Positions 45,375 through 64,000 are shown, counted from the first letter of the stretch. The stretch: DNA of 64,000 bases from Candidatus Spongiihabitans sp. (GCA_965206355.1 OZ242212.1:1310814-1374813); one strand, 5' to 3'. Made by a program: numbers and translations. Notes: generated from the sequence alone by a model not told the origin.

Positions 45375-47789
45375 ATGTTTTATAAATCAAAAAATGATGA
45401 AGGCCTGATTCAAGTTCCTGCGGTCACCCCTCACGTCGAGGTCATCACTTTCGACAACGCCGAAATGAATATCGGCGATGATTTTCCCGAAGAGGAACTA
45501 CGTAATATGAATCTATGCTTTTGTGTCGACGCACAGGGCGCTGGGTATGGGCTACTGGGGCCGTTGCATAGAGATATCATGTGCCTGGTGGATGGTTCCC
45601 GCACTCGCATGGAAATCGTCGAGGCGCTCCAGAAAATCGGCCACGATGCTATGGATACGAATACCATGCTAGCCAGTCTGGCTTACCGGTTTTTGCTGGT
45701 GTCAGCGGAGCATTCACTCCAGCCCGAACAAGCGGCGTTGTTTTCTGCACTGGGCATCACGCCGCGCTGCGCGGAAGAGTGCATGGCCGAATTGAAAATT
45801 TTTATTCACAGCATCAGCGCGCACCGCGATGGCGCGGGCATTGTAACCGAAGCATTGTCCAATCTAGGTTGCGGAAACCGCGCCATTGTCGATGCCGAAG
45901 ATAGCGCCGATGTCGTTATCGTGTTGGTTGATGACTACCTGCAAACAGAACTGGAAACCATCAACCAGCGCTTTCTCAAAAACCGGAAAAAATGGTTGCC
46001 ACTGAAATTGAGCGGCACTGAAGGCCTGGTCGGCCCGCTGTTTAATTTGCGGAAAAATGGATTTTGCATGACGTGTTTGCAGACTAACTTGCGCAACAAT
46101 CGCGAACTTCGCAGTTTTTTTGGGCACAACCGCGACGGCGCTGACATCGCCAAAGAGAGAATCTTTGAATCATCGCTTGCCCGTGGCCGCGCGGTTGAAG
46201 CTCTGTTGCAGATGATTAAATCCCTGCTGGCCGACGCTGATCAGTATATCGATGTCAATACCGAAGGACATTTTCAAAGCATTGAACATTACGTCTTGTC
46301 GAGTAACACGGTTATCAACACCCAATCCTGGCACTATGTGAATAAAAGGCCACAGTGCGCCTGTTGCGGCGACCCGCAAACGATCAACAATGAACGCCCG
46401 CCTAATCCGGTGGATTTATCTCAAGGGTCAAAAGAATCTATGTTCACCAGCGGCGGCATGAAAGCTCGGTCGCCGCTACAGACCTGGAACAAATATCAAC
46501 ACTTGATTTCTCCGCTAACCGGTGTTGTAACAGGCGTTGTTCGATCTTCTCCGCCGGACGATTCGTGGCTTCACGTTTATTGGGCAGGCAGCAATTTGGC
46601 TATCGTTAATAAACTTTTCCACTCTCTCAGCACCAGCCTGCGAACCAAGAGCGCAGGCAAGGGGCGGTCGGACTCCCAGGCCAAGGTCAGTGCCTTGTGC
46701 GAAGCCCTGGAACGCAATAGCGGGGTCTATGACGGCACTGAAATTCATCGCCGCGCGCGATTTATCGATTTTGACGAGGGCGAAGCTCTGCGGCCTAACG
46801 ACATCATGCTATTCAGCGATAATCAATATAAGATGCGCGACCAGGTGGCGTCAAAGAAATTTCGTTTCTACCGACTTCCGGAGTTGGATTTCGACGAGAA
46901 CGTGGAAGTCGAATGGACACCATTCTGGTCGGTAAGCCGCAAGCAGCATGTCTGGATGCTGTCTGCTCAGGCTTATTTCTCTTACTATTCAAGCAATATG
47001 GAACTCAACAAATTCATGGGGAATCCGGATTCCAATGGTGCCGCATCGGGAAACACCATTGCCGAGGCATTCGTGCAAGGTTTTATGGAATTAGTGGAGC
47101 GCGATGCCTTCGCCATCTGGTGGTATAACCGTTTATCCTATCCGGAAGTCGATATCGCCAGTTTCATGGACCCATTCTTGACTCAATTGGTGGAACACTA
47201 CCGCACCGAATACAATCGAAATGTATGGGTGCTTGATATTACTCATGACTTTGGCATTCCGGTTTTTGTCGCCGTGTCCGAGCGCTTTGACAAGAAAAAA
47301 CGTGATATCTGCGTGTCCGCTGGCGCCCATTTTGATCCGCATATTGCATTGTTGCGCGCGATTTGTGAACTCAATCAATACGCATCGGTGGTATTGCGTT
47401 CCACCGATGATGTGTCCAGTTATACTTATTTCGATCAAGAATGCCTTGACTGGTGGCACAACGCCACCTTACAAAACAATCCGTATCTTTTGCCCGACAG
47501 CAAGGCGGCCAAAACCACCAAGGCGGATTATCCTGTCATCGCACGCACCCAGGCTGAAGAATCACAGGCCTGCATTGATGCAGTCCATACCAAAGGCATG
47601 GAGATTCTGGTGATGGACCAGACCAAACCCGATATCGGGTTGCCAGTGATCAAGATACTGGTGCCAGGGATGCGCCATTTCTGGGCCCGTTTTGCCCCGG
47701 GACGACTCTACGATGTGCCTGTGGAGATGGGAAAACTGAGCAAACCCACCCCTGAACAGGATTTGAATCCCACCCCCGTATTCATCTAA
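45375..47789 (+). CDS. fused E1-like/RRE plus YcaO azoline-forming heterocyclase (PatD/TruD-like), copy 1
   Basis: N terminus VPAVTPHVEVITF, wHTH-like LVDGSRTRMEIVEAL, and a Cys quartet (FCMTCL ... CACCGD). YcaO core KSAGKGRSDSQAKVSALCEALERNSG, ELVERDAFAIWWYN, and C-terminal PGRLYDVPVEMG...NPTPVFI. The ORF-track start at 45282 lies inside the MITE and is rejected. Confidence 0.85.
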   Translation: MFYKSKNDEGLIQVPAVTPHVEVITFDNAEMNIGDDFPEEELRNMNLCFCVDAQGAGYGLLGPLHRDIMCLVDGSRTRMEIVEALQKIGHDAMDTNTMLASLAYRFLLVSAEHSLQPEQAALFSALGITPRCAEECMAELKIFIHSISAHRDGAGIVTEALSNLGCGNRAIVDAEDSADVVIVLVDDYLQTELETINQRFLKNRKKWLPLKLSGTEGLVGPLFNLRKNGFCMTCLQTNLRNNRELRSFFGHNRDGADIAKERIFESSLARGRAVEALLQMIKSLLADADQYIDVNTEGHFQSIEHYVLSSNTVINTQSWHYVNKRPQCACCGDPQTINNERPPNPVDLSQGSKESMFTSGGMKARSPLQTWNKYQHLISPLTGVVTGVVRSSPPDDSWLHVYWAGSNLAIVNKLFHSLSTSLRTKSAGKGRSDSQAKVSALCEALERNSGVYDGTEIHRRARFIDFDEGEALRPNDIMLFSDNQYKMRDQVASKKFRFYRLPELDFDENVEVEWTPFWSVSRKQHVWMLSAQAYFSYYSSNMELNKFMGNPDSNGAASGNTIAEAFVQGFMELVERDAFAIWWYNRLSYPEVDIASFMDPFLTQLVEHYRTEYNRNVWVLDITHDFGIPVFVAVSERFDKKKRDICVSAGAHFDPHIALLRAICELNQYASVVLRSTDDVSSYTYFDQECLDWWHNATLQNNPYLLPDSKAAKTTKADYPVIARTQAEESQACIDAVHTKGMEILVMDQTKPDIGLPVIKILVPGMRHFWARFAPGRLYDVPVEMGKLSKPTPEQDLNPTPVFI

Positions 47790-47812
47790 AAATTGCGCCG
47801 AGCGAACAGTTG

Positions 47813-50236
47813 ATGACTCCTCAATCCACTCGCGACATGCGCAAACACGGCAGTGACGCCGGCATTGTGCAGTTGCCAAAAATTGCGCCTCATCTGCATA
47901 TCGATATTGTTGAGATCGACCCCTCTGGCGCCGGCCCTGATAAGTCAATGTTGATAACCTCGGAATACGATAAGAACTATTACCAGATTTATCCGATAGC
48001 AGAATTAGGCGAAATGCTTTTGGCCGCGATTGATGGCGATGCAAGTGCAACGCAGCTGATTCAAAGAATCACCTCCTCGTCACGCTATAGCCATCTGGAG
48101 GTTGCCGCTATGCTGTCGCTGCTTTCCAACGCCGACATCATCATTTCGGGGCGATACGACATGCCTGACGGACAAGCTGCGTTGTGGCTAAATATGGGAT
48201 TTACCCCTGCCCTTGTGGAAAACACAACGAGTCGGTTGCGGGTTGCGATTGTCGATAAGGCGGAGTCTCCCGCCTACCAACAAGAGTTGGGAACGATGCT
48301 GCGCAGTCTTGGCGTGAACACGAGCGATGGAGATGTCTTGGACAGCGATTTGACAGTCGTGGTGGTTGATGATTATTTGCATAAATCGTTGAATAAAATA
48401 AATCGAGATTATCTGAAAAAAAAGATCCGATGGTTGCCGGTTAAATTAAGCGGTAATGTTCATTGGGCCGGCCCCGTATTCAATCAGCCGAACCGCGTTA
48501 AAACTGATTCCGAACTTGTTTTGGAAAAACCGTACATGGCGAAAGATTTCTGCTGGTATTGCCTGGCGGAGCGAATAGAAAACGGTCGTCAAATAGAGCA
48601 GGCGAAATATCGACAAACCGACCTCAAGCCCCGCCCTGCTTCGAAAATGTATACTCCGGCCCTGCAAGCGAGCGCCTACAACATCACGCTGGAGATAATC
48701 AAATACCTGTTGCACGCTGATCAAGAAACAGAATTCGATGTTCACCCATTCTGCTCATCATCGTGGGTGTGGGATCAGATAAGTAATCGATCCGACTGGC
48801 ACATTGTCAATAAAAATCCCGCCTGCGTGGTTTGCGAGCAACCATCAACCGACGACATTGATCCGATACATCTCGATGATGTTGAGATCGGAGAGCGTTA
48901 TGTAAGCAGTGGCTGGCGCATCGTGCCTATCGAACAAACTTTTGAGAACTATCGCCACCTCAACAATGCCTATACGGGTGTTATCGACCTGTTTGAGGAT
49001 ATTCAAAACCCAGTCGATGATTTCTGCTTTGTCTCTGAATCAAGCAATAACATCTCGACAAAAAGCAACGCCATATTCTTTCCCTTGATGAGCGTCAGGA
49101 TGCGCAATGCGGGGAAAGGAATCACACCTGCTTCGGCACGCACCGGCGCCTTGTGCGAATCCATCGAGCGCTATAGCACCAGCTTGCACGGCGCTGAAAT
49201 CCGTAGACGCGCCCGCTATCAAGATTTTCCCGCAGGGCAAGCATTGATGCCAAACTGCTTTATGAATTTCAGCGATAAACAATTTGTGCAGAATCAGCAG
49301 GGCAACCAAGATGCCAGTGGCAATCCATTTGTCAACATTCCTGCCCGACTAACTGAATATGAATACTGCGAGTGGTCGCCTGTTTGGTCTTTTACGCAAC
49401 AACAAACCATCTGGACGCCGACCCAATCGCTGTATTTCGGCTATCCATATAAAAATCGCTGGATCGCCATTCCGGATACCAACGGAGTCGCCGCTGGCAA
49501 CACCCGAACAGAGGCATTTGTACAGGCATTTCTAGAGGTTCTGGAGCGCGATGCCGTCAGTATTTGGTGGTATAACCAACTGCAATGTAGAGAACTTGAT
49601 CTGGATTCGATTGATATTCCCTTCATCCGCCGGGTTGTCGATCAATACGAAAAGAAAAATAGGCGCTGTTGGGTATTGGATATCACCTTTGATCTGGGGG
49701 TTAATATTTTTGTGTTCCTGAGCCGTAAAAATTCTTCCGCCACCAAGGGCGAAGAAATTTGTCTGGGGTGCGCCGCTCATTTTGATCCGGAGATCGCCCT
49801 GACCCGAGCCATATGCGAACACAGCCAACTCTGGACAATGATTGAAAATCGGCGCGAAAAAACCTTTTTTAAGAAGTTATCGCCAGCCTTCTCAGCTTGG
49901 CTACAAAATGCCACAACTATGGCGAAATCACTCAAGTATTTGTTGCCTGCGGGTAAAAAGCAGTGGTGTGATTATCCGTTGAATTTAGAATTTAACCTGC
50001 TACAACAACGCCAGGCTTGCCTGAAGATGGTGGAAGAAAATGGCTGGCAACTGTACCTGGCCGACTTCACCCGCCCCAGCATAGGGTTGTCGGTCATTCG
50101 GGTGATGATTCCTGAGTTGCGTAGTATGCACCGGAGGCTTGGTCCTGGCAGGCTATATGATGTTCCGGTAGAAATGGGGCTGCTCAAGTGCGCAAAAATC
50201 GAAGAGGAAATGAACGAGATTGATATTTTTATTTGA
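47813..50236 (+). CDS. fused E1-like/RRE plus YcaO heterocyclase (PatD/TruD-like), copy 2
   Basis: Same architecture as copy 1: LPKIAPHLHIDIVEI, IDGDASATQLIQRI, FCWYCL ... PACVVCE, NAGKGITPASARTGALCESIERYS, EVLERDAVSIWWYN, PGRLYDVPVEMG. It starts 21 nt after copy 1 ends. Confidence 0.85.
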   Translation: MTPQSTRDMRKHGSDAGIVQLPKIAPHLHIDIVEIDPSGAGPDKSMLITSEYDKNYYQIYPIAELGEMLLAAIDGDASATQLIQRITSSSRYSHLEVAAMLSLLSNADIIISGRYDMPDGQAALWLNMGFTPALVENTTSRLRVAIVDKAESPAYQQELGTMLRSLGVNTSDGDVLDSDLTVVVVDDYLHKSLNKINRDYLKKKIRWLPVKLSGNVHWAGPVFNQPNRVKTDSELVLEKPYMAKDFCWYCLAERIENGRQIEQAKYRQTDLKPRPASKMYTPALQASAYNITLEIIKYLLHADQETEFDVHPFCSSSWVWDQISNRSDWHIVNKNPACVVCEQPSTDDIDPIHLDDVEIGERYVSSGWRIVPIEQTFENYRHLNNAYTGVIDLFEDIQNPVDDFCFVSESSNNISTKSNAIFFPLMSVRMRNAGKGITPASARTGALCESIERYSTSLHGAEIRRRARYQDFPAGQALMPNCFMNFSDKQFVQNQQGNQDASGNPFVNIPARLTEYEYCEWSPVWSFTQQQTIWTPTQSLYFGYPYKNRWIAIPDTNGVAAGNTRTEAFVQAFLEVLERDAVSIWWYNQLQCRELDLDSIDIPFIRRVVDQYEKKNRRCWVLDITFDLGVNIFVFLSRKNSSATKGEEICLGCAAHFDPEIALTRAICEHSQLWTMIENRREKTFFKKLSPAFSAWLQNATTMAKSLKYLLPAGKKQWCDYPLNLEFNLLQQRQACLKMVEENGWQLYLADFTRPSIGLSVIRVMIPELRSMHRRLGPGRLYDVPVEMGLLKCAKIEEEMNEIDIFI

Positions 50237-50290
50237 TGCGGTGAAATCCAACGGCCACGATTTTTTCGACCGCACATGGATTGCCGGAAA

Positions 50291-50968
50291 TTATGAATAC
50301 CAGCGAACGAACTCTTGGTTATTCTCACGAACACGCTCCAGATCAGCGTCATCGCTGACATCACCCGGGTAGCCCAGCGACATTCCGCAAAGTAACTTCA
50401 TATCGTCTTCAATGCCTAAAATATACTTGGCAATTTTCGGGTAGTTTCCCCAAGACGCCTGCGAACAGGTTGCGAGGCCGTATTCCTGGGCCGCCAGCAT
50501 GATATTTTGCATAAACATGCCAATATCCAGCAAGGAGCCCTGGGCGAGTCCGCTTTCGATAAAAAACAACAATCCGACATCAGCCCCGAAAAAATAATAG
50601 TTCTGCTTTTGAAGGGCGATAACCGCCGGCCAGTCAATATACTCTTGAGTAAATTGAATCCCTTTGGCTTGATAAAGCCGAGTCCCCATCAAATGCCGGC
50701 GCAGATTATATTTCAGTGGCATTGATTCAGGATAATAGGCGATCTCCGGACTGGGTTTCTGCTGTGCCTCCGAGGCTTTAATGTAAGCATCGGTAAGTTT
50801 TTTCTTGGTCTCCCCCTGAACAACCGCAACCTGCCAGGGCTGCATATTGCCCCCGGTAGGCGCTTCTTTGGCAATGCCTATAATTTTATCAACCACATCA
50901 ACAAGAACAGGTTTGTCCGTGAAGGATCGTATGGATTTACGCTTAACAATCGCATCGATCGTATTCAT
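50291..50968 (-). CDS. nitroreductase-family FMN oxidoreductase
   Basis: 225 aa. Classical N terminus (AIVKRKSIRSFTDKPV) and nitroreductase-fold length. Confidence 0.8.
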   Translation of the reverse strand: MNTIDAIVKRKSIRSFTDKPVLVDVVDKIIGIAKEAPTGGNMQPWQVAVVQGETKKKLTDAYIKASEAQQKPSPEIAYYPESMPLKYNLRRHLMGTRLYQAKGIQFTQEYIDWPAVIALQKQNYYFFGADVGLLFFIESGLAQGSLLDIGMFMQNIMLAAQEYGLATCSQASWGNYPKIAKYILGIEDDMKLLCGMSLGYPGDVSDDADLERVRENNQEFVRWYS

Positions 50969-50986
50969 GGCTGAAAAAACGAGAAG

Positions 50987-52021
50987 TTAGAGACCGCTGG
51001 CGCTAAGACGAAACAACGCCTTTTTGTAATTTTGTTGCACTTCGGGGTTAAGGAACGCATTTTCACTGAGAGCAAGCATATAGCGCTCAGGATAACGATA
51101 AGGGATTTCGTCTGGGGAATCTCCTCTGATAATTCGCACTGCCAGTTTCAGCGCCCCGGCACCTTGTTCATATGGAGATACACCAACTGAGAGCAAAATG
51201 CCGTCTTCCGAATTGAAGACATTCATTCCAATCACCGCCGCATTGCTATTGACCTGAGTCCAGGCACCGACTTCTTCAGAATCAACACGGCTACCGTTCT
51301 CATCCAACAGCTGACGGTATCCGGAAACCAGAATATAGTCGTAGTCACCAGAATTTTCCAGGATAAATTTTTGCCACTGAGCGTAATCAGCCACGAACTC
51401 TCCCCCACGATAATCGATGTTTCCCCAGTCCTGCGCGGCTAGAAAATCAGAATTTTTGTGACTCGAGGTGGAAGTATCCGCCAAAAATAACACGGATACG
51501 GGCGCCTCAATTTCTTGCAGTCTGTTCAATTCGGCAATAACCAGCTTCAAGGATGTCAGTGGTTTGTGTTCAAAAATGCCTGTTATGTTATCGGCCCCTG
51601 AATACCCATATTTTTCAACCGAGGAATTTACCCCGGAAAATACAACATCGATATCTGGGTGGTTCAGATAATGTTTGGAAATGATGTTTTGAGCGGAATC
51701 ATCCACAGCGATAATGACCTGCGGATCAAATGCTTCCACATATGTAACAAAGTCTTGTTCGACTCGTTGTTTGTTTTTTGGGTAATCCAAATTACGCGTA
51801 TTCATATAAAAATAACGTATTTTTACATTATATTTCAATTGTTTGAAAGCAGACAGCAAACTTTGATCGATCAGATTTGTCCACACATAATCTTTTCCAT
51901 AACTGTGCAATACCATAATACGCGGAGTTTCACTGACTATGCTGACATACAAAGATCCCAGTAACATGCCGCACACAACCAGCGTTGCTACATATGTTTT
52001 TTTAATTACCATAAAGCCCAC
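50987..52021 (-). CDS. membrane-anchored periplasmic protein resembling the ABC_sub_bind (COG2984) substrate-binding fold
   Basis: One N-terminal TM helix (YVATLVVCGMLLGSLYVSIV), then RIMVLHSYGKDYVWT...DVVFSGVNSS...NITGIFEH, as in the periplasmic domains of uncharacterised ABC SBPs and sensor proteins. No partner permease or ATPase is adjacent. Confidence 0.45.
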   Translation of the reverse strand: MGFMVIKKTYVATLVVCGMLLGSLYVSIVSETPRIMVLHSYGKDYVWTNLIDQSLLSAFKQLKYNVKIRYFYMNTRNLDYPKNKQRVEQDFVTYVEAFDPQVIIAVDDSAQNIISKHYLNHPDIDVVFSGVNSSVEKYGYSGADNITGIFEHKPLTSLKLVIAELNRLQEIEAPVSVLFLADTSTSSHKNSDFLAAQDWGNIDYRGGEFVADYAQWQKFILENSGDYDYILVSGYRQLLDENGSRVDSEEVGAWTQVNSNAAVIGMNVFNSEDGILLSVGVSPYEQGAGALKLAVRIIRGDSPDEIPYRYPERYMLALSENAFLNPEVQQNYKKALFRLSASGL

Positions 52022-52188: not shown

Positions 52189-55100
52189 TCATGCCATATC
52201 GGCTGAGGGGATCAAGGGCGCACGAAACGGATTCAGGTTTTTACGCGCGTGAACACTCAACAACAACAGCCCCATATCCGCCTGTCCATGAATGGCGCCC
52301 ACCCGAAAATTATCGTCCGCCCAGCAATCGGGAAACCAGCACTGACTGCTACGCTTGCGCTGAACAATCTCATTGACTAAGTTATCCACGGCCTCCCGAG
52401 GAGAATTAACGCCTGGTACGGCCAATAACTGGTAAAGATGATCCATCAGAAATTCTCCAGACTTGGTCAACAACTGTTTGGCCGTGTATTCATGCGCCTG
52501 CTGTTCCGGCATTCCCCCGGTATGATGTTCGCCGGAAGCATTGCGCGCCTTCTCTTCCTGCAAATCCGCTATAAAATTCCGTAGTTTCAAGTAGCCCGGA
52601 TGCTCCACGAATAACGGCCAGTTGTCTTGCATGTATTGGTTGACCAGGTACATGCCAGAAGTGGCATTCGGCAGAAACGCATTCGCATATTTGCGATAGG
52701 TGTCGGTTTGTTCCGGACTTGCCTGCAAGGATTTGGTCTCGATCAATTCCAGTATTTGTTCAATCCATGGAGTCAATATTTCGTTGTTAAAAAGCAATTC
52801 CAACTCAGTAAAACGGTATAAAAGGCCACTGATGCCATGCCGATAATCCACAAAAAGGCTATCCGTATCGCGCATCTCTTTCAGCAAATCTACCGTCAGA
52901 TGTTCTACATTTGCAGTCAGGTTGTTATTCATTGCTGGTTTAACCCGCGCCAGACTGCACAACGCGGCCAGCTTTGATCCGTGCAAACTGATTACGCCAT
53001 ATGTTTTGGCTGTTTCATATTCAAACCCTTCAATAGCGTCTCCAGTCATGTATTCATAGCACTTGCGCAACGCCTTGATGTTGTCGTTTTTTGGGGCGGC
53101 ATATTGCTGTAGCGTTGCGAGGAAAACAATAATGCCACTGCAACCGTCAAAATTCAGTAGCAAACGTTGCGGGATGCGGATGTTGTTTAACTGTAGTCTG
53201 CCGATGGCGAGGTAATCCTTCAAATTTTCTGTTTGATTGATATTGGATGCCAGTTGGTTGCCTATTTCCTGAGCCAGGGCCACGAACTCTCCATCCGTTA
53301 CCGACTGTGATGCGTTGCTTACATCGTTGCTCCGCCGCCACGGGCGCCGGGGGTTGTCGGGTCGCGTCGAAAACAATGCTTTGATGTAGCTTATCTGGCG
53401 ATCAGTCTCATTCAGCGAGTAAGCGTAATTTCGGGCTATCTTGGAAAGCGTGGTTTTTTTGAAAAAATTTTCTTCGGTGGCAACATTCGCAGTATTGAAA
53501 AGCAGCAGGCTGTTGGTTTGTAATTCAAACAACGGGACATCATTGTTCCATATATCATTTCTTATGCCGTCGATAATGGTGATCGGAAAGCCTTTAAATA
53601 TCGAGAAAAACCTGTCCAGCGCAATACTTGCGCGTACGCCGTCATTCCCGCAATCACCGAAAAACCTGGCTATCAGCGAATAGCATTGCCAGGTATCGAC
53701 GACGATATGACGAAAACGAGCTTGGTCGATACGTTGATAGAACTGCTGTAGTGCTTCACGCCCAATATCCGATTCCAACAACTTTCCCATGCGCCTGTAG
53801 CCATCGATAAAAATTTCCAGAAAGTCGTTCATGTCCTGGAACTCACCTTGATAAAAAGGCGCATAATCGCTGGCCTCGAAATCGTCATATAAATTATCTT
53901 TTTTCGAAAACGGAACCTGTTGCTTTCCCGGAGGTGTTGTTACGCTGATATCAATCCCATCCGCCAACTTAAAGCTCACCGACCCCGGCATGAGCAGTGG
54001 CAACATGCCCACCATCTGCATTTTTCTAAATTGCACGACGTGTTCATCTTGCTCGTCGGTGTTCCAGAGATCTTCGAAACTGTTGCCGACAATTGTTTCA
54101 TAATCAATAAAATAGGGCATGTCGGCACAAGCGATTAGGTTGTCATACCAGAAATCATTGCCATTCAATAACTGTAGCACAAACAACCATCCCCCCAAGC
54201 GCCGGTAAAAAGTCTCCACTTCCGACAGCTGACCGCACGCTTGCCAGCGAACCCGTTGCTCCCAGCCATACCCCTGGCAATACATAAACGCGGGCGTCAA
54301 CGGCACAAACTCACTGTGCGATGGATGCAGGTCTTGCAGTAATAATCCGATTGCCCAAGTGCCTATCAGGTTTTTTGGCTTGTAGACAACATCGCCGCGG
54401 CTGGTCTCGAAAATAGCCACTGAACGCCCGCCGCGGTGCGGGTCCCCCAAACCGCAGCGTAGCCGTGAAACGACAATACCGTCATCGGTTTGCGCTTGCG
54501 GGCGCAACATCTGAACTGTGAGTTGAGATAGGTCAGCGGTAAATCTGTGCAGCATTTCCTCCGTGGCTATCTGCCAGCGAAACACCAGATTGCCAATAAT
54601 TTTGACCAGAATCGGTTGGCGTTCAAAAGCCGCTTGCCAAAACCCCAATGTTTCAAATAATTGTTGTCGATAATCGTCTTCGCCCTCGGGAAAACTGCCG
54701 GGATACGCATTCAATACGCCAAACAGTGGCGGCGCAAGCCGCGACATAAGGTTTTCAAGCAAATCGTTCACGCTGGCTTCGGTCAGCTGAATCCCGGCTG
54801 ATGCCAACTGATGTTGTTGAGCGTTGAGCCACGGGCGACACAATTCCGCCCAGGCGACAGCCAGCGTCAAGTGGGGTTTTTTTTCAGCGTACTCCGGTTT
54901 AATTCTTTCATCGTGTTGCCGCCAACGTTCATATAAATCAATGAATGTTTTTGCCCAGTCGGGCAAATACTCCGGGGCGGATACATCCACATCGCGCATG
55001 GATTGATACCACTGCTGTTGATCCAGCCCACGGCGTCGTAAAATTTCCCCCCCCTCCGGCGCGGGTCGGAACAAGGCGCTCCAACTATCGCATCGGTTTT

Positions 55101-55230
55101 GTAAAACAACCGCATCTTGCTCGGCGCTGAATGTAAATGCCCCGGACTTGATGCGTTCCTCGGGGAAACTTGCCCGGGCAATCCATTGATACAGGCGCGA
55201 TGCGTCCTGTCGGCTCGCGCTACTTGTCAT
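52189..55230 (-). CDS. LanM-like (class II lanthipeptide synthetase-like) protein: DUF4135-type dehydratase domain plus a degenerate LanC-like domain
   Basis: 1013 aa. N-terminal domain motifs GDPHRGGRSV, VVYKPKNL, GYGWEQ, FYRRLGGWL and NDFWYDNLIACADMPYFIDYE. The C-terminal alpha-toroid-like repeats (NFDGCSGIIVFL, DYRHGISGLLYRF, AIHGQADMGLLLL) lack recognisable WCxG / CHG zinc-ligand motifs. Confidence 0.75.
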   Translation of the reverse strand: MTSSASRQDASRLYQWIARASFPEERIKSGAFTFSAEQDAVVLQNRCDSWSALFRPAPEGGEILRRRGLDQQQWYQSMRDVDVSAPEYLPDWAKTFIDLYERWRQHDERIKPEYAEKKPHLTLAVAWAELCRPWLNAQQHQLASAGIQLTEASVNDLLENLMSRLAPPLFGVLNAYPGSFPEGEDDYRQQLFETLGFWQAAFERQPILVKIIGNLVFRWQIATEEMLHRFTADLSQLTVQMLRPQAQTDDGIVVSRLRCGLGDPHRGGRSVAIFETSRGDVVYKPKNLIGTWAIGLLLQDLHPSHSEFVPLTPAFMYCQGYGWEQRVRWQACGQLSEVETFYRRLGGWLFVLQLLNGNDFWYDNLIACADMPYFIDYETIVGNSFEDLWNTDEQDEHVVQFRKMQMVGMLPLLMPGSVSFKLADGIDISVTTPPGKQQVPFSKKDNLYDDFEASDYAPFYQGEFQDMNDFLEIFIDGYRRMGKLLESDIGREALQQFYQRIDQARFRHIVVDTWQCYSLIARFFGDCGNDGVRASIALDRFFSIFKGFPITIIDGIRNDIWNNDVPLFELQTNSLLLFNTANVATEENFFKKTTLSKIARNYAYSLNETDRQISYIKALFSTRPDNPRRPWRRSNDVSNASQSVTDGEFVALAQEIGNQLASNINQTENLKDYLAIGRLQLNNIRIPQRLLLNFDGCSGIIVFLATLQQYAAPKNDNIKALRKCYEYMTGDAIEGFEYETAKTYGVISLHGSKLAALCSLARVKPAMNNNLTANVEHLTVDLLKEMRDTDSLFVDYRHGISGLLYRFTELELLFNNEILTPWIEQILELIETKSLQASPEQTDTYRKYANAFLPNATSGMYLVNQYMQDNWPLFVEHPGYLKLRNFIADLQEEKARNASGEHHTGGMPEQQAHEYTAKQLLTKSGEFLMDHLYQLLAVPGVNSPREAVDNLVNEIVQRKRSSQCWFPDCWADDNFRVGAIHGQADMGLLLLSVHARKNLNPFRAPLIPSADMA

Positions 55231-56990: not shown

Positions 56991-57377
56991 TTAGCTACTG
57001 CCGGCAGTTCCCGCACTGCCCACGCTACCCACACAGCCACCGGATGAAGCGGTTGATGTGAATGTGCCAAGTGTTGACGCGGAGCCAGCGGTGCCGACGG
57101 TCCCCGCGGAGCCGGTTTTTCCGGCGGCTTGAATCTGGTTCAAATCACTCGCGGAGAGCTGGTGATCTGCCGGAAGATGCGGCGGCATTTGCACGTAGGT
57201 TGTATCTTGGGTTGAGGTTATCACTCTGATCTCCGGCGCATCGCCTCCCCCGAAGAGGTTGTCATAACCGATCTGCGCCAACGCATTCGTATCATGCTCT
57301 CGTAACTGTTGGCGAAACTCAGGATCGTGCATCAATTGCAGTCCGGCATCGGGACTCATATCAGTTTTCGTATTCAT
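56991..57377 (-). CDS. RiPP precursor peptide A (NHLP-type leader; 42-aa G/S/T/A-rich core)
   Basis: Leader ...DPEFRQQLREH...EIRVITSTQDTTYVQMPP...LNQIQAAG. Core KTGSAGTVGTAGSASTLGTFTSTASSGGCVGSVGSAGTAGSS. An SD-like GAGG lies upstream of the ATG. Confidence 0.8.
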   Translation of the reverse strand: MNTKTDMSPDAGLQLMHDPEFRQQLREHDTNALAQIGYDNLFGGGDAPEIRVITSTQDTTYVQMPPHLPADHQLSASDLNQIQAAGKTGSAGTVGTAGSASTLGTFTSTASSGGCVGSVGSAGTAGSS

Positions 57378-57430: not shown

Positions 57431-57781
57431 TTACGCCGAGCCGGCGGTGCCGGCGGTGCTTGCGGAACCCGCGCTACCCACGGTTGAAGTGAGGGTGCTG
57501 ATACTGCTTGCTGTCGTCGCAGTACCAACGCTACCGTTGGTGTTGCCCGCCGCTTGAATGGAAAGTAATTCCTCGGAGCTGATCGTGGAAAGGTGCTCAA
57601 CCTGTGCAAGCGGGACATACATCGTGTCGGGACCATTGATCACCAGTTTGACTTCAATCTCCGAATCCGCGGCAATAATCTCGTTGTCAATGGCATACTG
57701 TCTGGGATCGTTGCGAATGTCTCGACGCGTATCCGGATCAAGCATGGATTGTGTTAATGAAGAATCTGTTAAAGTATTCAT
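57431..57781 (-). CDS. RiPP precursor peptide B (NHLP-type leader; 37-aa core without Cys)
   Basis: Leader ...EIEVKLVINGPDTMYVPL...LLSIQAAG. Core NTNGSVGTATTASSISTLTSTVGSAGSASTAGTAGSA. AGGAG lies 6 nt upstream of the ATG. Confidence 0.8.
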   Translation of the reverse strand: MNTLTDSSLTQSMLDPDTRRDIRNDPRQYAIDNEIIAADSEIEVKLVINGPDTMYVPLAQVEHLSTISSEELLSIQAAGNTNGSVGTATTASSISTLTSTVGSAGSASTAGTAGSA

Positions 57782-57809: not shown

Positions 57810-58175
57810 CTAGGCGGAACCAGCAGTGCTTGCGGAACCAGCGGAACCACCTGTTGACAATGTGGTATTGGCTGTACCCACCGTGCTGGCGCTGCCAGCG
57901 CACGCTATGGTACTGGCCCCGCTACCCGCCGCTTGTATCTGGGCCAGATGATTTTCATCCAACGCATGCGCGTTGCTGATTTCCGGAAAAACAATATACA
58001 TCGTGTCAGCGGTGTTGGTTACCACCTTGAATTCCTCATTGCCACTTAACTCGGACAACGGGTGGCCTTGGGATTGCATCTCGGCATAAGCCGCTTTGGG
58101 GTCGTCAAGATACTTCTGCCGCACAACCGGGTCGGCCATCATTGAAATAGTGTCTTGGATTTGTTGCTTATTCAT
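57810..58175 (-). CDS. RiPP precursor peptide C (NHLP-type leader; 37-aa core)
   Basis: Leader ...DPVVRQKYLDDP...EFKVVTNTADTMYIVFP...LAQIQAAG. Core SGASTIACAGSASTVGTANTTLSTGGSAGSASTAGSA. GAGG lies upstream of the ATG. Confidence 0.8.
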   Translation of the reverse strand: MNKQQIQDTISMMADPVVRQKYLDDPKAAYAEMQSQGHPLSELSGNEEFKVVTNTADTMYIVFPEISNAHALDENHLAQIQAAGSGASTIACAGSASTVGTANTTLSTGGSAGSASTAGSA

Positions 58176-58464: not shown

Positions 58465-61400
58465 TCACTCCACCTGCATTTGTCTAATGGCTAATTCGTA
58501 AAACAATCCTCGTTTCGCCAGCAACTCTTCATAACTGCCTTGCTCGACAATTTCTCCCTGGTCCATAACATATATCCGGTCGGCATTGCTGATGGTGGTC
58601 AAGCGATGGGCGATGACTATGCGGGTGATGTTCATTTGTAGCAGGCTGTCCTGCACAACCTTTTGGGTGATGTTGTCGAGTGCGCTGGTTGCTTCGTCCA
58701 GCAACAAAATGGCGGGGTGGTGCGAAATGGCGCGAGCGATCATCACGCGCTGCAATTGCCCGCCCGACAGGCCGCCACCGCCAAACGACGACAGCAGGGT
58801 ATGCATGCCCATGGGCAAATCCTTGATATCCTTTTCCATGCCTGCTTTTTCGGCGGCTTCCCAGGCCGCTTCCAGGGTAACGTTGGTGTCTTCGCAGGCG
58901 ATATTTTCATAAATGCTACCCGGCAAAAGATCGCCGTTTTGCAAAACGACGCCAATCCGTCTTCGCAAATCGGAGAGGTCAATGTCATTCACATTCGTAT
59001 CATCGACAAAAACCGCCCCCTTGTGCGGTTGCTCGAACCCCAGCAACAGGTTGAACAAAGTGGACTTGCCCGATCCGGAACGCCCGACGATAGCGGCATA
59101 TTCACCTTCCTTGATTTCCAGGGTTATATTTTTGAGAATGGGAATCCCCGGCTGGTACTGAAAGTCGACCGAATTGAAACGAACATCGCCGCGCAAAGAC
59201 GGCAGCTGGGGCTTTTGTACGCCCACTTCCACGGGTTCCTGGAGTATGGGATCCATGCGCTTAACCATGGGAATGGTGCTCATCACTGACAGCAACACCA
59301 GCGCCAGTGAGATCATGGTGCTGGATAATTGCCCAAAAGCCGTATTGAACAAGATGAAGTCGCCCAGGCTGAAGTCTGTTTGATAACCCGCTTCCAGCAA
59401 ACCGAAATAGATAAAACCGAAGATAATAATACTGCCGATAAGCGGAATAATGCTTGCCGCCACCTGCAATACATTGTTCGAAAGCATATATTGTCGGTTT
59501 TCCACGACCACCCTGTTATGTACGTTTGACCACAACGCCAACGCGGTATTTTCCTTGGCCGCCACTCTTAGTTTGGAAATGCCATTCAGTAGTTGAAATA
59601 TCAGTCCGTCAACCTTGCCTTTATATTCAAATATATTGGCAAGAATTGGCAATACTCTGCGGCATATTATCCAGGTCAGAATGAAGAACAGCGAGAATGC
59701 CGCCATGATAATGAAGGCCAGCCGCCAACTGTAATAAAACAGCAGGGACAGATTGAACAGCACCGAGATCGAAGAACTAATGACGTTGGCGGTGGATGAT
59801 GTCCAGACTGCCTGTATATCGTCAAAGATATTCGCCCTGCTGGACAGATCTCCCACAGCGTGGCGATTAAAAAAGGTCATAGGCAACCGCAGCAAACGAC
59901 TCCAGATGGCAGCATGTATATCCAGCGAGAGAAAATATTCGATGCGCAGCACGGCTATGCTATTGAAAAAATTAGCAACCAGCATTCCAATAATTGCCGC
60001 AAACAGCGCCAATAAATAACTGTTCAGAAGCGCAAAATTAAAACTTGGCAGCGCACTTGAAAGTAACTTTCCGAGAATAATGGGGTGAACCAGAGTGATT
60101 GCCCCCAGAATGACAGCAGTCAGCAAAATACGTTTAACATCGATATGGGCAAGCTGAAGTGCTTGCAATAAAAACCCTTTAATGCTGGTAACGCTCTCAC
60201 TCAGTCGTCGGTATATTAACAACGCTTCAGGAGTAATTTTTTCTGCAATCGAATCCGAAAGATATTTCCATTCATCGGTTTTCGGATCATAATATTTATA
60301 TCGTGTTACTTCATAGTAAAGCAACACTGGAAATGTATGGCCTTCCAGAAATGCTACCAGCGTCCAATCATCTTTTTTATACCATTTTCCAGTGAGCGTT
60401 ACTTTGCGCTTATCGAATCCTCCCAATGCGAGCAGATGCTCCAACCCTCCAAATGTGGTGGGATCGGCGGCTTCTAAAATTTCAGTGGCAATCGATTTGA
60501 CTTCGCTTTTGCTGATTTTGCACAACTCCAGCAACAAATTGCTGTTGGCTGAAGTGCGATCTATCACCGTGGTGTATGGAACAATATCTTCTTTTCCGTG
60601 AAAAGCGTTCACGAAATTGAAATTCATGGTCTGCATATTTTGTTGTTCGATTTCCTTGGAGCGAACTATATCGTTCTGCTGTTGCCGCTCGAATCCCAAT
60701 GCCTGCAGATACAGCAAGACGCTGATCAGGTGGTGAAAATCATCAACCGTTTTATTGCCGAGACCTTGTTGGAGCAGTTGCCGGGTGGTGAAGATATCGA
60801 CAACAACGTTTTCGGAAACAACCACCGTATCCCGACTAAACAGCGGAAATTGGAATTGATTGATTCGGCTACTGGCGCGAATTTCCAGCCCTCTATAATT
60901 AGCCAGAATGGTTGAAGCGGCATCGCTGATTTCTTCCGAGCGGGCGAATTGCAGCCATAGGATTTCGTCTTTAGCGCCGCTTTGCGCGCAGATATTTTCT
61001 TCGATGATTTGTTGTTGGTCAGTGCCGGAAAACCGCAACAACCGAAAAGCGGGCAAGTCAGTGTTGTTTGGTAGCGCACTGGTGATTTTCTCCACCCAGT
61101 TAGCCACGCCGAATAGAGCATGATCGGTCAGTTTATCGTGATGTAACAACGCATGCCGATCCACCACTGACAGTTTATCGTTCTCGCCCACTATCATGAA
61201 AAAACCGAGATAGAGATGTTGCGATTTTTCACGCTCCAGAATTTCAGGTTTTATGGGCAGGCCATCAAGGGAGGAAGGGGGGGAGCCAGGGAAAATATAC
61301 TCACCCGCCCCAAATGCGTGTATTTTTTTTCTGTTGTATAAGGGCACGCCGTCGCAAGTTCGCGCGACATAGACGGAGACTTCGCCTTCTTCAACTCGAT

Positions 61401-61506
61401 AGCAGTGACTGGGATTATCCAATGGAACGATTCGATTGGAGTTTTCCAACGGTCGAATATTAAGCAACTCCGAATGTTGCTGGGTAAATTGTGGGAGATC
61501 AGGCAT
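58465..61506 (-). CDS. bacteriocin/NHLP-type export ABC transporter permease/ATPase with a long N-terminal extension (cNMP-binding-like plus non-catalytic peptidase-like region)
   Basis: 1013 aa. N-terminal beta-barrel-like YRVEEGEVSVYVA...FGAGEYIFPG, a six-TM ABC exporter domain, and an NBD with [28 protein letters not shown]. Confidence 0.85.
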   Translation of the reverse strand: MPDLPQFTQQHSELLNIRPLENSNRIVPLDNPSHCYRVEEGEVSVYVARTCDGVPLYNRKKIHAFGAGEYIFPGSPPSSLDGLPIKPEILEREKSQHLYLGFFMIVGENDKLSVVDRHALLHHDKLTDHALFGVANWVEKITSALPNNTDLPAFRLLRFSGTDQQQIIEENICAQSGAKDEILWLQFARSEEISDAASTILANYRGLEIRASSRINQFQFPLFSRDTVVVSENVVVDIFTTRQLLQQGLGNKTVDDFHHLISVLLYLQALGFERQQQNDIVRSKEIEQQNMQTMNFNFVNAFHGKEDIVPYTTVIDRTSANSNLLLELCKISKSEVKSIATEILEAADPTTFGGLEHLLALGGFDKRKVTLTGKWYKKDDWTLVAFLEGHTFPVLLYYEVTRYKYYDPKTDEWKYLSDSIAEKITPEALLIYRRLSESVTSIKGFLLQALQLAHIDVKRILLTAVILGAITLVHPIILGKLLSSALPSFNFALLNSYLLALFAAIIGMLVANFFNSIAVLRIEYFLSLDIHAAIWSRLLRLPMTFFNRHAVGDLSSRANIFDDIQAVWTSSTANVISSSISVLFNLSLLFYYSWRLAFIIMAAFSLFFILTWIICRRVLPILANIFEYKGKVDGLIFQLLNGISKLRVAAKENTALALWSNVHNRVVVENRQYMLSNNVLQVAASIIPLIGSIIIFGFIYFGLLEAGYQTDFSLGDFILFNTAFGQLSSTMISLALVLLSVMSTIPMVKRMDPILQEPVEVGVQKPQLPSLRGDVRFNSVDFQYQPGIPILKNITLEIKEGEYAAIVGRSGSGKSTLFNLLLGFEQPHKGAVFVDDTNVNDIDLSDLRRRIGVVLQNGDLLPGSIYENIACEDTNVTLEAAWEAAEKAGMEKDIKDLPMGMHTLLSSFGGGGLSGGQLQRVMIARAISHHPAILLLDEATSALDNITQKVVQDSLLQMNITRIVIAHRLTTISNADRIYVMDQGEIVEQGSYEELLAKRGLFYELAIRQMQVE

Positions 61507-63692
61507 TATTGGTGTGCAATTAATTTAGCGTAAACGCCGTCTTTATCCGCAGCAAGTCTCATATGGTCGCCACGCTGAACAATTCGACCTTTGTCGAGCA
61601 CCAGAATTTGATCAGCATCGCGAATAGTGCTGAGACGATGCGCTACAATCACCAGGCTGCAACAACGGCGCTTGATACCATCCATCACCTTTTTTTCGAC
61701 AATCGTATCGAGCGCCGATGTCGCTTCGTCCAGGATAATCAGGCTGGGATTGGTAACCAGCGCGCGGGCGATTTCAAGGCATTGGCGTTGCCCGCCACTG
61801 AAATTTCTACCACCCTCTAGAATTTGATGGCTATAGTTGCCGGGCAGTTTATTGATGGTTTCCAGCAAACCGACATCCTCCAGCGCTTCGCCAATTCTAA
61901 TGTCCATAATGGTTTTGTCCCACAGCGTCAGGTTGTCTCGCACCGACCCTTCGAACAATATAATTTCTTGACTTACCATGGACACGGAACGACCGAAAGT
62001 AAAAGTGTCAATAGCGTCCAGATGCTGTTCGTCATACAGAATTTCTCCTTGCGATGGTTCATAAAGCCGCGATAATAATTTGAGCAATGTTGATTTACCG
62101 CTGCCCGAAGAACCGACTATGGCGATTGAATTACCTGGTTCAACGGTGAAATCAATGTCTTTCAATGCGGGCGCACCGTTCTTTGTATAGCTGAATGCAA
62201 GGTTTGACACTCCCAACTTGCCATAGAGTCTTGGCGGCCCGGCCAGTTTCGCGGGCTGGGCACGCTTTTCGGGCTGATAGCTCAGCACATCGTCCAAACG
62301 GTCCAGATCGCCTTTTAGTTGTTGTAGTTCGGCACCAAAACTGACCAAGCTGGAAATGGGCCGCATAAATTGTTGCGCTAATCCTTGAAACGCAATCAGA
62401 CCGCCTACTGTCATCACGCCATCTATAATCAGGCGACTACCCACCAGAATAATGATACATACAGCGAGACCGGTCAGAAAATTTGGGGTCAGCACTAGGA
62501 TGCAGGAATAAATATTGAGGGTTTTCTTGGCCCTGACCATGCGCGCCTGAATGCCCGTCCAGCGTCTGAAAAATACGCTTTCGATACCATTGGCTTTCAA
62601 CGTTCCGATCGCGTTAAGGCCACTCATTGACACCCCGAGAAGGTTGCTTTTTTCTTTGAGAAAAACCTTATTGACGGTGCTCCGTTTTTCATTAAGAATA
62701 GCCAGAACAAGAAAATTCAGCGACACCATAACAATAGCGACCAACCCCAATATATTGTTATAAAGGATGAGAATTGCGCCGTAAATAACCGAAGTCATCA
62801 CATTGATTACATTGATGGCCACATTGTTTGCAAGCGTTTGAGCAACCCGGTCATTGGATGCCACGCGATCGGCTATGTCGCCGATATACCGCTGAGCAAA
62901 GAACAACAAAGGCAACTCAAAGATATGCTTCATGAATTTTGCTGCGGACGTTATTCCCATTTTCAGATTCAGCAGCGTTAACATTCGATACTGAATGCTG
63001 AGCATCACGGTTTGCGCTATAAAAGTGATGACCATAGCCAAAACCAGCGGGCGCATTAGCGAATCCAGCCCGCGAATCAACACGTCATCAATAAAAATTT
63101 TACTGAACACCGGAACCACCAGTCCGATGATGGACAGCATCAGCGTGACCAGCGTCAAGTAGAGCAGGTTTTTTGTTTCGCCGGACAGACGCCTGGCCAG
63201 ACTGCTATGAATTTTTTGCGGAGAACCGACCGGCCTGAAATCTTTTGTTTTGGTGAAATTGATAGCGACGCCAGTGAAATTATCGTCAAACTCTTGACGG
63301 GTGACCGTCTTGCGGCCTTCGCCCGGATCATTGAGATAGTATATCCCTTTTTTGGTATCCAATCCTTCCAGCACTAAGAAGTGATTGAATTTCCAAAAAA
63401 TAATCGCCGGAAAAACGACTCGATCAACCAGATTATCCAAATCCGCTCGCACCCCCTGGGCAACGAGATTAAAACTCTTGGCAACCTTCACCAACGCCAA
63501 GGCATTGCTACCGTCACGCGATACGTCACAGGATTTTCTGAGCTGCTCCAGACTTTGATGCACACCGTGGTAAGCCAATATAGCACCCAAAGACGCCGCG
63601 CCGCACTCAGTCGCCTCCATCTGCATGAAGACCGGTGTTTTGCGGCGAATGACTTTGCTTTTTTTGGTGCGCTTAAGCAACGAAGCAAACAT
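61506..63692 (-). CDS. bacteriocin export ABC transporter with an N-terminal C39 peptidase domain
   Basis: Catalytic Cys context QMEATECGAASLGAILAYHG, a C39 His region (HFLVLEG), TMD, and an NBD with [27 protein letters not shown]. Its stop overlaps the next ABC gene start (TAATG). Confidence 0.9.
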   Translation of the reverse strand: MFASLLKRTKKSKVIRRKTPVFMQMEATECGAASLGAILAYHGVHQSLEQLRKSCDVSRDGSNALALVKVAKSFNLVAQGVRADLDNLVDRVVFPAIIFWKFNHFLVLEGLDTKKGIYYLNDPGEGRKTVTRQEFDDNFTGVAINFTKTKDFRPVGSPQKIHSSLARRLSGETKNLLYLTLVTLMLSIIGLVVPVFSKIFIDDVLIRGLDSLMRPLVLAMVITFIAQTVMLSIQYRMLTLLNLKMGITSAAKFMKHIFELPLLFFAQRYIGDIADRVASNDRVAQTLANNVAINVINVMTSVIYGAILILYNNILGLVAIVMVSLNFLVLAILNEKRSTVNKVFLKEKSNLLGVSMSGLNAIGTLKANGIESVFFRRWTGIQARMVRAKKTLNIYSCILVLTPNFLTGLAVCIIILVGSRLIIDGVMTVGGLIAFQGLAQQFMRPISSLVSFGAELQQLKGDLDRLDDVLSYQPEKRAQPAKLAGPPRLYGKLGVSNLAFSYTKNGAPALKDIDFTVEPGNSIAIVGSSGSGKSTLLKLLSRLYEPSQGEILYDEQHLDAIDTFTFGRSVSMVSQEIILFEGSVRDNLTLWDKTIMDIRIGEALEDVGLLETINKLPGNYSHQILEGGRNFSGGQRQCLEIARALVTNPSLIILDEATSALDTIVEKKVMDGIKRRCCSLVIVAHRLSTIRDADQILVLDKGRIVQRGDHMRLAADKDGVYAKLIAHQ

Positions 63693-63726
63693 ATACTTGA
63701 TGAGTATTTATCAATGCCATTCCTGA

Positions 63727-64000
63727 TTAAGCAAAAAAGGAACGCAATAAAGGAATCAACATGGTGATGGGTTTGCGTTTTTCTAAAATAAACTCGACCG
63801 TCCCCAGGCTACCTATATTAATGGAATTTTCCTCAGCTCCGCGCGGCGATGTCCACGACAAACCGTTTTTGGAAGCGGGGTCACTTTTCAGTTCAATTCT
63901 GACTTCATACAGCGCGCCTGCCCGGGTAAATTGATCCACCAGCGCCTGGTTGGCCAATTTTGATGCAATGCCGGCAGCGGTAATCGGCAGTTCTGAAACG
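63727..64000 (-). CDS. HlyD-family membrane-fusion/secretion protein, C-terminal end only (5' part outside the window)
   Basis: The frame stays open to the window edge (...VSELPITAAGIASKLANQALVDQFTRAGALYEVRIEL...GTVEFILEKRKPITMLIP). The position upstream of the two ABC genes fits the exporter set. The fragment is too short for strong motif evidence. Confidence 0.55.
   Translation of the reverse strand, partial: VSELPITAAGIASKLANQALVDQFTRAGALYEVRIELKSDPASKNGLSWTSPRGAEENSINIGSLGTVEFILEKRKPITMLIPLLRSFFA

Follow-up and report, generated by a model that had tools for sequence, protein, structure and literature searches.

What product should be expected of a gene cluster that combines precursors bearing NHLP-type leaders with two YcaO cyclodehydratases, an azoline dehydrogenase and a LanM-like protein whose cyclase-like domain has no zinc ligands? 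Such a cluster begins at about 45.3 kb in a 64,000-nucleotide stretch of the genome of Candidatus Spongiihabitans sp. (GCA_965206355.1 OZ242212.1:1310814-1374813; hereafter the window, meaning the whole stretch that was analysed) and runs past its end. A first-pass annotation of this DNA had taken the cluster for a candidate novel system for peptides that are made on the ribosome and altered after translation (RiPPs), fitting no characterised class and having no characterised product made by its enzyme set. Neither statement can be upheld. The dehydrazole class was defined in 2023 by Pei, Zhu and Nair (Nat Commun 2023, PMC10676384), one of whose clusters has the architecture seen here; carnazolamide has been reconstituted from such enzymes (PMC10676384), and the natural product nostatin A is made by a similar set (PMC11583998). 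The window cluster is an uncharacterised member of this published class, its architecture already being in print, and we consider it very likely that it makes dehydrazole-type RiPPs, that is, linear azole peptides with dehydroamino acids derived from NHLP-leader ("proteusin-like") precursors.

Relationship to the dehydrazoles

The dehydrazoles were delineated by mining DUF4135 proteins that co-occur with YcaO enzymes. All proteins so recovered have a cyclase-like domain without zinc ligands, for which the name LanMbC was introduced, and the gene set of the class comprises an NHLP leader, a YcaO, a dehydrogenase and a DUF4135 domain fused to the zinc-less cyclase-like domain (PMC10676384). Judged by its sequence, the window cluster displays a DUF4135 domain, a zinc-less cyclase-like domain, syntenic YcaO and dehydrogenase genes, NHLP-like leaders and homology to a published LanMbC protein, which would place it in the class. 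That LanMbC homolog is encoded on a 13.6-kb contig of an uncultured Ca. Thioglobus (GCA_900180405.1 FXLE01000048; locus L012), which by the printed precursor sequences is "Cluster 39" of Suppl. Fig. 21 of Pei et al. 2023; the precursor A3 shown there, whose machine-read text departs from it in a few places, corresponds to the L012 open reading frame (ORF) at 12102-12410. The Ca. Thioglobus cluster has been described as containing two YcaO/dehydrogenase pairs, one LanMbC and several precursors (PMC10676384). Like the window, it encodes two E1-YcaO proteins of ~760-800 aa, a ThcOx/SagB protein, a LanM-like protein of ~970 aa with DUF4135 only, a nitroreductase of 226 aa and several NHLP-type precursors with G/S/T/A-rich cores. 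Its LanM-like protein (P0022) is 31% identical to that of the window over 98% of the query (E 7e-120), and the corresponding identities are 54% for YcaO1, 35% for YcaO2, 44% for SagB and 49% for the nitroreductase. Unlike the window, L012 also has a Nif11-type precursor, and its contig contains neither an adjacent NHLM exporter nor an SBP-like gene. This cluster is known bioinformatically only.

The two characterised pathways provide the functional frame. The cca cluster of Chryseobacterium carnipullorum shares with the window an NHLP-leader precursor, a YcaO, an azoline dehydrogenase and a DUF4135/zinc-less cyclase-like fusion (CcaM, 1015 aa). In the full reconstitution of carnazolamide, eight azoles were installed by the YcaO/dehydrogenase pair and eight dehydroalanines (Dha), each directly before an azole, by CcaM, which modifies only Ser preceding an azole and requires its fused cyclase-like domain but not the leader (PMC10676384). 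The cca cluster differs in its single YcaO and in having a radical SAM (rSAM) epimerase (CcaD), a methyltransferase (CcaH) and an S8 leader peptidase (CcaF), whereas the window has two YcaOs, an extra nitroreductase, no epimerase or methyltransferase, cleavage and export by a C39-ABC protein, and nearly Cys-free cores. The nst cluster of Nostoc sp. likewise encodes an NHLP-type precursor, a cyclodehydratase (NstD), an oxidase (NstE) and an enzyme resembling LanM (NstG), together with a PoyD-like epimerase, and the core of nostatin A consists of three-residue blocks such as Ser-Thr-Ala that become Dha-mOxa-Ala, mOxa being methyloxazole (PMC11583998, 2024). STA and SSx blocks also occur in the cores of the window. 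Nostatin A departs from the window in its sactionine bridge, methylated proline and several thiazoles, and its cluster in the PoyD-like epimerase and a second rSAM protein; the window cores, in turn, are mainly Gly-(Ser/Thr)-(Ala/Val) triplets with almost no Cys.

Other RiPP classes fit less well. The cyanobactin cyclodehydratases LynD, TruD and MusD align over their full length with YcaO1 and YcaO2 of the window (E 1e-143 to 1e-87), but cyanobactin systems have PatA/PatG proteases/macrocyclase and a cyanobactin-type precursor, in place of which the window has NHLP-type leaders and C39-ABC cleavage; as PatA/PatG are not in the cluster, we reject this assignment. We likewise reject a thiopeptide, for which there are weak matches to the thiocillin model NF033482 (E 1e-4, below cut-off), given that no LanB or [4+2] genes are present; these matches fall on the low-complexity S/T-rich cores and look compositional. 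No rSAM gene is found at 45-64 kb of the window, in the flanking 36-45 kb, in L012 or in L013, a bounded relative described below. The cluster has the NHLP-type leader of the proteusins, but in the absence of a PoyD-like rSAM epimerase from the sequence up to 64 kb it is not a proteusin in the strict, polytheonamide sense.

The LanM-like protein

The DUF4135 domain (PF13575) of the LanM-like protein is recognised with E 3e-56. The LanM model TIGR03897 matches with E 2.5e-77, at 260 bits against a curated cut-off of 304 and only up to residue 831, and LANC_like reaches 20.4 bits (cut-off 23.2) over the first half of the model only. An AlphaFold model built from 24 homologs (pLDDT 85.5, pTM 0.88) matches LicM2 (E 3e-24) and CylM (E 3e-20) in Foldseek searches over ~1000 columns, the full length of the protein; according to this predicted structure both domains have the LanM fold. 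The protein therefore shares its two-domain fold with the class II synthetases CylM, LicM2 and ProcM, and differs from them in the missing zinc ligands, in the replacement of the His of the DxH motif by Trp and in its sub-threshold TIGR03897 match.

The residues of CylM required for phosphorylation and elimination have been identified by mutagenesis (PMC4550811). When these are mapped by HMMER alignment, eight of nine are kept (D252, H254, K274, D347, N352, D364, R506 and T512), the ninth, H349, being Trp. The motifs around them (GDPH, YKPK, NDFWYDN, FID(Y/F)ET and R....DTW) show little or no variation among 24 clade members, whose identities go as low as 30%. NDFWYDN (residues 358-364, window 54148-54168) is the equivalent of the DxH motif (CylM D347/H349), and DFW(Y/F)DN occurs throughout the YcaO-associated DUF4135 clade and a sister clade of ~840-aa proteins (P0002-P0024, P0026, P0028, P0029 and P0034), whereas canonical LanMs recovered by the same search keep D(F/L)HxEN, WCxG and CHG. 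The latter two motifs, which carry the zinc ligands, were sought in the C-terminal domain of the LanM-like protein and of the 24-member clade and are absent; in this domain (residues 640-1013) no column has Cys or His in more than 13 of the 24 sequences. We argue from the conservation of the kinase and elimination motifs that the protein would retain a dehydratase role. As its zinc ligands are missing and the cores are almost Cys-free, it is not expected to form lanthionine. In CylM, the H349A mutant is slow and still active (PMC4550811). It is conceivable that the invariant DxW version of the kinase motif marks a mechanism of azole-dependent dehydration.

Distribution of the cassette

Clustered at 90% identity, the close homologs of the LanM-like protein make up a small set of ~24, which score >1189 bits against the clade profile and come almost without exception from metagenomes or metagenome-assembled genomes (MAGs). 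A scan with one genome per species yielded six gammaproteobacterial loci (L001-L006), the first of them in an Arenicellales MAG whose LanM-like protein is 58% identical to that of the window. The full cassette of YcaO1, YcaO2, SagB and LanM-like genes is found in eight loci (L001, L003-L006, L012, L013 and L015, the last being a TARA scaffold without the nitroreductase); L002 has the SagB, LanM-like and nitroreductase genes and no YcaO within its 10-kb flanks. The cluster of L013 lies between recR/ybaB and putA, and contains no epimerase, methyltransferase or exporter gene within these limits. The ~840-aa DUF4135 proteins of the sister clade go with a single YcaO and a ThcOx protein (L014).

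At 2126-15464 of L014, the YcaO, the ThcOx-type oxidase and the 840-aa DUF4135 protein are accompanied on both sides by ~10 small ORFs (82-131 aa), which probably represent a large precursor family. Among the relatives are assemblies of Arenicellales and Ca. Thioglobus, and an association with sponges is hinted at by locus tags of the form SPONN_/SPONL_.

Precursors and their tripeptide-repeat cores

The three precursors have the cores SGASTIACAGSASTVGTANTTLSTGGSAGSASTAGSA (PreA), NTNGSVGTATTASSISTLTSTVGSAGSASTAGTAGSA (PreB) and KTGSAGTVGTAGSASTLGTFTSTASSGGCVGSVGSAGTAGSS (PreC), and a tblastn search of the window for further precursors recovered only these. Altogether 19 precursors of the family were collected, of which 18 were aligned. 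Their leaders are 70-90 aa long (79-86 aa in the window), share the motif (F/V)KVV..T.DT.Y..P and terminate in L..(I/M)Q(A/G)(A/G)(G/A), which as a site of the double-Gly type is appropriate for a C39 peptidase. The NHLP leader model TIGR03793 is matched by 11 of the 18 (best E 3e-10) and nitrile hydratase alpha by four, and among more than 200 further metagenomic homologs many have PF02979. PreB is 50% identical to precursor b of L001, and the window, L001 and L013 have three leader types in common. Also in L001, an ORF just upstream of the SagB gene (7725-8150, minus strand) has at its end a sequence resembling an NHLP leader (...KVELLFNTDKLVHIVLPYIEGEDV) that is followed by no core; this could be a precursor that has decayed or a leader-like protein standing alone.

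The cores consist to 47% of S/T/C, yet Cys accounts for only two of the 116 core residues in the window and is absent from PreB. The S/T/C residues recur with a period of three: at lag 3 z is 6.0 for the three cores of the window and 12.7 for the 19 of the family, and co-occurrence is depleted at lags 1, 2, 4 and 5. The repeat unit can be written [G/S]-[S/T/C]-[A/V/I/L], the periodic site being preceded by Gly in 47% and by Ser in 34% of cases and followed by Ala, Val, Ile or Leu in 78%. Phase was assigned to the cores by a heuristic with visible slips, which is good for approximate counts only; with this limit, each core of the window has ~13-15 candidate azole sites, with Ser/Thr directly before one of them 3-5 times. 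The triplet repeat, as read from these sequences, fits an azole at every third residue with Ser/Thr dehydrated just before some of the azoles.

Cyclodehydratases and flavoproteins

Both YcaO proteins are fused E1-like/YcaO enzymes with a TIGR03882 leader-binding domain. YcaO1, which from the ATG at 45375 has 804 aa (orthologs 803-813 aa), matches PF02624 (E 7e-84), TIGR03604 (247.6 bits, above the cut-off of 219) and TIGR03882 (E 5e-20), and aligns with LynD (4v1t) over residues 54-802 with E 1.5e-143. YcaO2 is recognised by PF02624 (E 7e-76), by TIGR03604 at 215 bits, slightly below cut-off, and by TIGR03882 (E 2.5e-14), aligns with TruD (4bs9; E 5.5e-90), and retains the ALCESIERYS, NGVAAGNT and LEVLERDA motifs and the Glu-rich ATP/Mg motifs. 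A Pro-rich C-terminus is important for the activity of azoline-forming YcaOs. YcaO1 ends in NPTPVFI (47769-47789), and NP(T/I/V)PVFI, a terminus shared with LynD, is found in all eight orthologs. At the C-terminus of YcaO2 (50216-50236) the second Pro is lost in all eight orthologs; both prolines of NP.P are gone in five, including that of the window, and the first Pro alone is left in the other three. From this contrast the two cyclodehydratases of a pair may be suspected to differ in function.

The azoline dehydrogenase matches PF22767 (ThcOx; E 4e-17) and TIGR03605 (E 2e-40; 138 bits, well over the 78 required), as well as the cyanobactin oxidase CyaGox (5lq4; E 5e-62). The second flavoprotein, the nitroreductase (PF00881, E 6e-27), has as its best solved relatives generic nitroreductases (3gr3, E 4.5e-44; NfnB) and not SagB/McbC. 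Its gene adjoins the LanM-like gene in L001, L002, L004, L005, L006, L012 and L013, overlapping it by 4 bases in the last two, and is not found in the neighbourhoods of L003 and L015; the enzyme looks like an accessory component. The SBP-like protein has a hydrophobic segment at its N-terminus and a marginal PF04392 match (E 4.6e-6; 26.5 bits, cut-off 25.9) confined to residues 270-329. Its homologs adjoin the cluster only in the nearest relatives, L001 (37% identity) and L002 (61%), and we take this protein too for an accessory.

Proposed pathway and alternatives

The enzyme classes and the core periodicity can be assembled into a scheme in which the sites and order of modification, and the product itself, are modelled on the two characterised pathways. 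The starting material consists of three precursors, each with a ~80-aa NHLP-type leader and a 37-42-aa Gly/Ser/Thr/Ala core. Both E1-YcaO enzymes would bind the leaders and carry out ATP-dependent cyclodehydration of the middle Ser/Thr, rarely Cys, of the [G/S]-[S/T/C]-[A/V/I/L] triplets to (methyl)oxazolines, which the ThcOx/SagB flavoprotein, by homology, would oxidise to azoles. By analogy with CcaM, the DUF4135 protein would then phosphorylate and eliminate Ser, perhaps also Thr, directly before an azole to give Dha or dehydrobutyrine (Dhb); because its LanC-like domain is without zinc ligands, no thioether rings should follow. Finally, going by family membership, the C39-ABC protein would cleave after (A/G)(A/G)G and export the peptide together with the second ABC protein and HlyD. 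The triplet pattern of the cores fits both the substrate rule of CcaM and the Dha-(m)Oxa-Ala blocks of nostatin A. The first-pass annotation had foreseen much the same chemistry, a linear (methyl)oxazol(in)e-rich peptide, perhaps with dehydroamino acids, released by double-Gly-type cleavage on export, and this prediction is reasonable.

Several observations tell against this assignment. The homology to the characterised proteins CcaM and NstG is indirect, running only through the Ca. Thioglobus LanMbC protein; the Chryseobacterium CcaM is not among the matches to the LanM-like protein or its 24-sequence profile in an index of 5.8 billion proteins. The rSAM epimerase and methyltransferase of both characterised pathways are missing from the cluster, and the three precursors of the window, taken singly, fall below the curated NHLP cut-off (PreA, TIGR03793 E 1.3e-4). 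Gly, which is not dehydratable, precedes about half of the periodic S/T/C sites, so that Dha/Dhb may be few (~3-5 per core by the heuristic count). The activity could be altered or lowered by the Trp that invariably replaces His in the DxH kinase motif, and no product has been observed for the window cluster or for any member of its clade. We nevertheless regard a dehydrazole as very likely, and weigh three other explanations against it.

The one that survives best retains the dehydrazole pathway and adds to it some undescribed chemistry by YcaO2 and/or the nitroreductase, such as a reduction that turns Dha/Dhb into D-Ala/D-Abu and replaces the rSAM epimerisation, or a division of labour between the YcaOs according to leader type. 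It draws on the occurrence of the YcaO1/YcaO2 pair in every YcaO-holding locus of the clade, always with a degenerate YcaO2 C-terminus, on the gene overlap and the generic NAD(P)H-flavin reductase affinities of the nitroreductase noted above, and on the recurrence of three leader types in L001, L013 and the window, which would fit a division of labour. Such a division between paired YcaOs has in fact been suggested, though the same authors read the set as two YcaO/dehydrogenase pairs (PMC10676384). Neither L003 nor L015 has the nitroreductase, so that the core chemistry can do without it. The intact ATP/Mg-binding Glu motifs of YcaO2 and its full-length alignment with TruD make ordinary cyclodehydration the simplest reading of that enzyme. 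We know of no Dha reductase with the nitroreductase fold. On balance we think this explanation unlikely. Put in terms of classification, it would make the two-YcaO gammaproteobacterial clade a distinct dehydrazole subclass, near all-oxazole and Gly-rich, with an azole at every third residue and with undescribed chemistry by YcaO2 and/or the nitroreductase, a proposal that we offer only as a tentative one with the chances against it; the chemistries in question may be leader-type- or context-specific cyclodehydration, or flavin-dependent Dha/Dhb reduction instead of rSAM epimerisation.

A simpler product would be a plain linear azole peptide, of the kind made by thiazole/oxazole-modified microcin or cyanobactin-like pathways, with the DUF4135 protein dead, serving as a scaffold or acting on another substrate. 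The abundance of Gly before the periodic sites, the clade-wide Trp in the DxH motif and the sub-threshold LANC_like match would all be compatible with this. Against it, eight of the nine CylM catalytic residues lie in motifs that are conserved across 24 proteins as distant as 30% identity, and the LanM-like gene is syntenic with YcaO and SagB genes in the loci examined, apart from the YcaO-less flanks of L002. Moreover, Ser is the second commonest residue just before a periodic site, and the related CcaM is active on azole-containing cores only (PMC10676384). A plain azole peptide is in our estimate quite improbable.

A class II lanthipeptide of the prochlorosin kind, with lanthionines formed by the LanM-like protein and YcaOs that add a few azoles or serve a neighbouring pathway, could appeal to the TIGR03897 match and to the use of NHLP leaders and NHLM exporters by prochlorosins too (Haft 2010, as cited in PMC11583998), but that match falls short of the curated cut-off and stops at residue 831, the C-terminal domain has no conserved Cys/His and neither WCxG nor CHG, the cores offer two Cys in 116 residues and none in PreB, and synteny of the YcaO, SagB and LanM-like genes persists between distant genomes; with neither zinc ligands nor Cys to speak of, we reject this reading, which we hold to be hardly credible.

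If the cluster indeed makes a dehydrazole, its interest lies in what it would add to a class of which only two products, carnazolamide and nostatin A, are characterised, the latter being cytostatic at low nanomolar concentration (PMC11583998). Genomes and metagenomes are the only sources of the marine gammaproteobacterial sub-branch to which it belongs. In this sub-branch the enzyme set is leaner, with no epimerase or methyltransferase, and is combined with two cyclodehydratases and nearly Cys-free tripeptide-repeat cores. A product from this sub-branch would show the make-up of an all-oxazole dehydrazole and how general the azole-dependent Ser dehydration rule of CcaM is, and could reveal the roles of the paired YcaOs and of the extra flavoprotein. 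The window cluster opens no new class, and we consider its value for natural-product discovery moderate.

Gene organisation, export and borders

All the genes listed in the first-pass annotation are present where it had placed them (Table 1), with profile matches far beyond chance, and the YcaO/E1-like, SagB/ThcOx and LanM-like assignments stand in profile searches (for instance, DUF4135 E 3e-56 and TIGR03605 E 2e-40). It was also right about the three precursors with NHLP-type leaders, seeing that 11 of 18 family members match TIGR03793 even though those of the window stay below cut-off, about the scarcity of Cys in the cores (2 of 116 residues), and about the lack of genes for PatA/PatG, LanB-type/[4+2] enzymes and proteusin rSAM epimerases/methyltransferases, which profile searches bear out.

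Table 1. Genes of the cluster, with positions in the window
Gene or product	Position	Strand	Description
YcaO1	45375-47789	+	fused E1-like/leader-binding and YcaO cyclodehydratase, LynD/PatD type
YcaO2	47810-50236	+	second, more divergent fused E1-like and YcaO cyclodehydratase
Nitroreductase	50291-50968	-	225 aa, FMN nitroreductase family (PF00881)
SBP-like protein	50987-52021	-	membrane-anchored, periplasmic-binding-protein-like (marginal PF04392)
LanM-like protein	52189-55230	-	1013 aa, DUF4135 and zinc-less LanC-like domain (LanMbC type)
SagB/ThcOx FMN azoline dehydrogenase	55241-56821	-	TIGR03605, PF22767
PreC	56991-57377	-	86-aa NHLP-type leader ending QIQAAG, 42-aa core
PreB	57431-57781	-	79-aa leader ending SIQAAG, 37-aa core, Cys-free
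PreA	57810-58175	-	84-aa leader ending QIQAAG, 37-aa core
ABC2, NHLM-type exporter subunit 2 (permease/ATPase)	58465-61506	-	TIGR03797
C39-ABC, NHLM-type exporter subunit 1	61506-63692	-	TIGR03796, N-terminal C39 peptidase domain
HlyD-family NHLM secretion protein, C-terminal end	63727-64000	-	TIGR03794; cut by window end

The right-hand part of the cluster is devoted to export. The C39-ABC protein matches TIGR03796 (E 3e-259; 862 bits, above the cut-off of 853) and has the active-site Cys motif ECGAA close to its N-terminus. ABC2 matches TIGR03797 over residues 355-1010 (E 2e-203; 677 bits, slightly below the cut-off of 709); its N-terminal 352 aa (window 60450-61506) gave no Pfam matches, and this extension of ~350 aa is conserved in the L004 homolog, the alignment with which starts from residue 1. 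The HlyD fragment corresponds to positions 351-421 of the 421 of TIGR03794 (E 3e-14) and is 87% identical to a full-length protein of 443 aa in L001. By these family matches a C39-ABC, a second ABC protein and HlyD, the components of an NHLM export set, are encoded together. In L001, the nearest relative, translations alone suggest a 489-aa polytopic membrane protein and a TolC-like outer-membrane protein between the SBP-like and SagB genes (4843-7903); unlike L001, the window has no polytopic membrane or TolC-like gene at the corresponding place, and its partner in the outer membrane may be encoded past 64 kb or somewhere else.

The HlyD gene is cut at 64000, so that the cluster does run past the window, as the first-pass annotation had noted. 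Its start at ~45.3 kb is equally well founded. The genes at 36-44.6 kb encode D-amino-acid oxidase-family, proline racemase-family, amino-acid ABC transporter, enolase-superfamily and TctC receptor proteins, that is, hydroxyproline/amino-acid catabolism and transport, and the left border is real. Tailoring genes were sought in the upstream 36-45 kb, which held only genes of primary metabolism and transport. Promoter and terminator scans of 44.5-64 kb returned no more sites than in shuffled sequence, and an Rfam search had no matches inside the cluster.

A few features of the remaining window deserve mention. The G+C content is 0.52-0.59 at 32000-46000, compared with 0.46-0.51 in the cluster and mostly 0.46-0.48 at 1-26 kb; this segment includes the genes for the D-amino-acid oxidase, the proline racemase-family protein, the amino-acid ABC transporter, the enolase-superfamily protein and TctC, and may represent a catabolic island acquired separately. 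At 42702-43849, ORFs of 228, 207 and 234 aa overlap one another on both strands and have no Pfam matches. Finally, the Rfam model PYLIS_3 (pyrrolysine insertion sequence, mttB) matches 21981-22080 on the plus strand (52.9 bits, E 6e-8) within an MttB-family methyltransferase gene (20892-22490; PF06253, E 4e-108), which is probably due to similarity of the coding sequence in an MttB homolog of the non-pyrrolysine kind.

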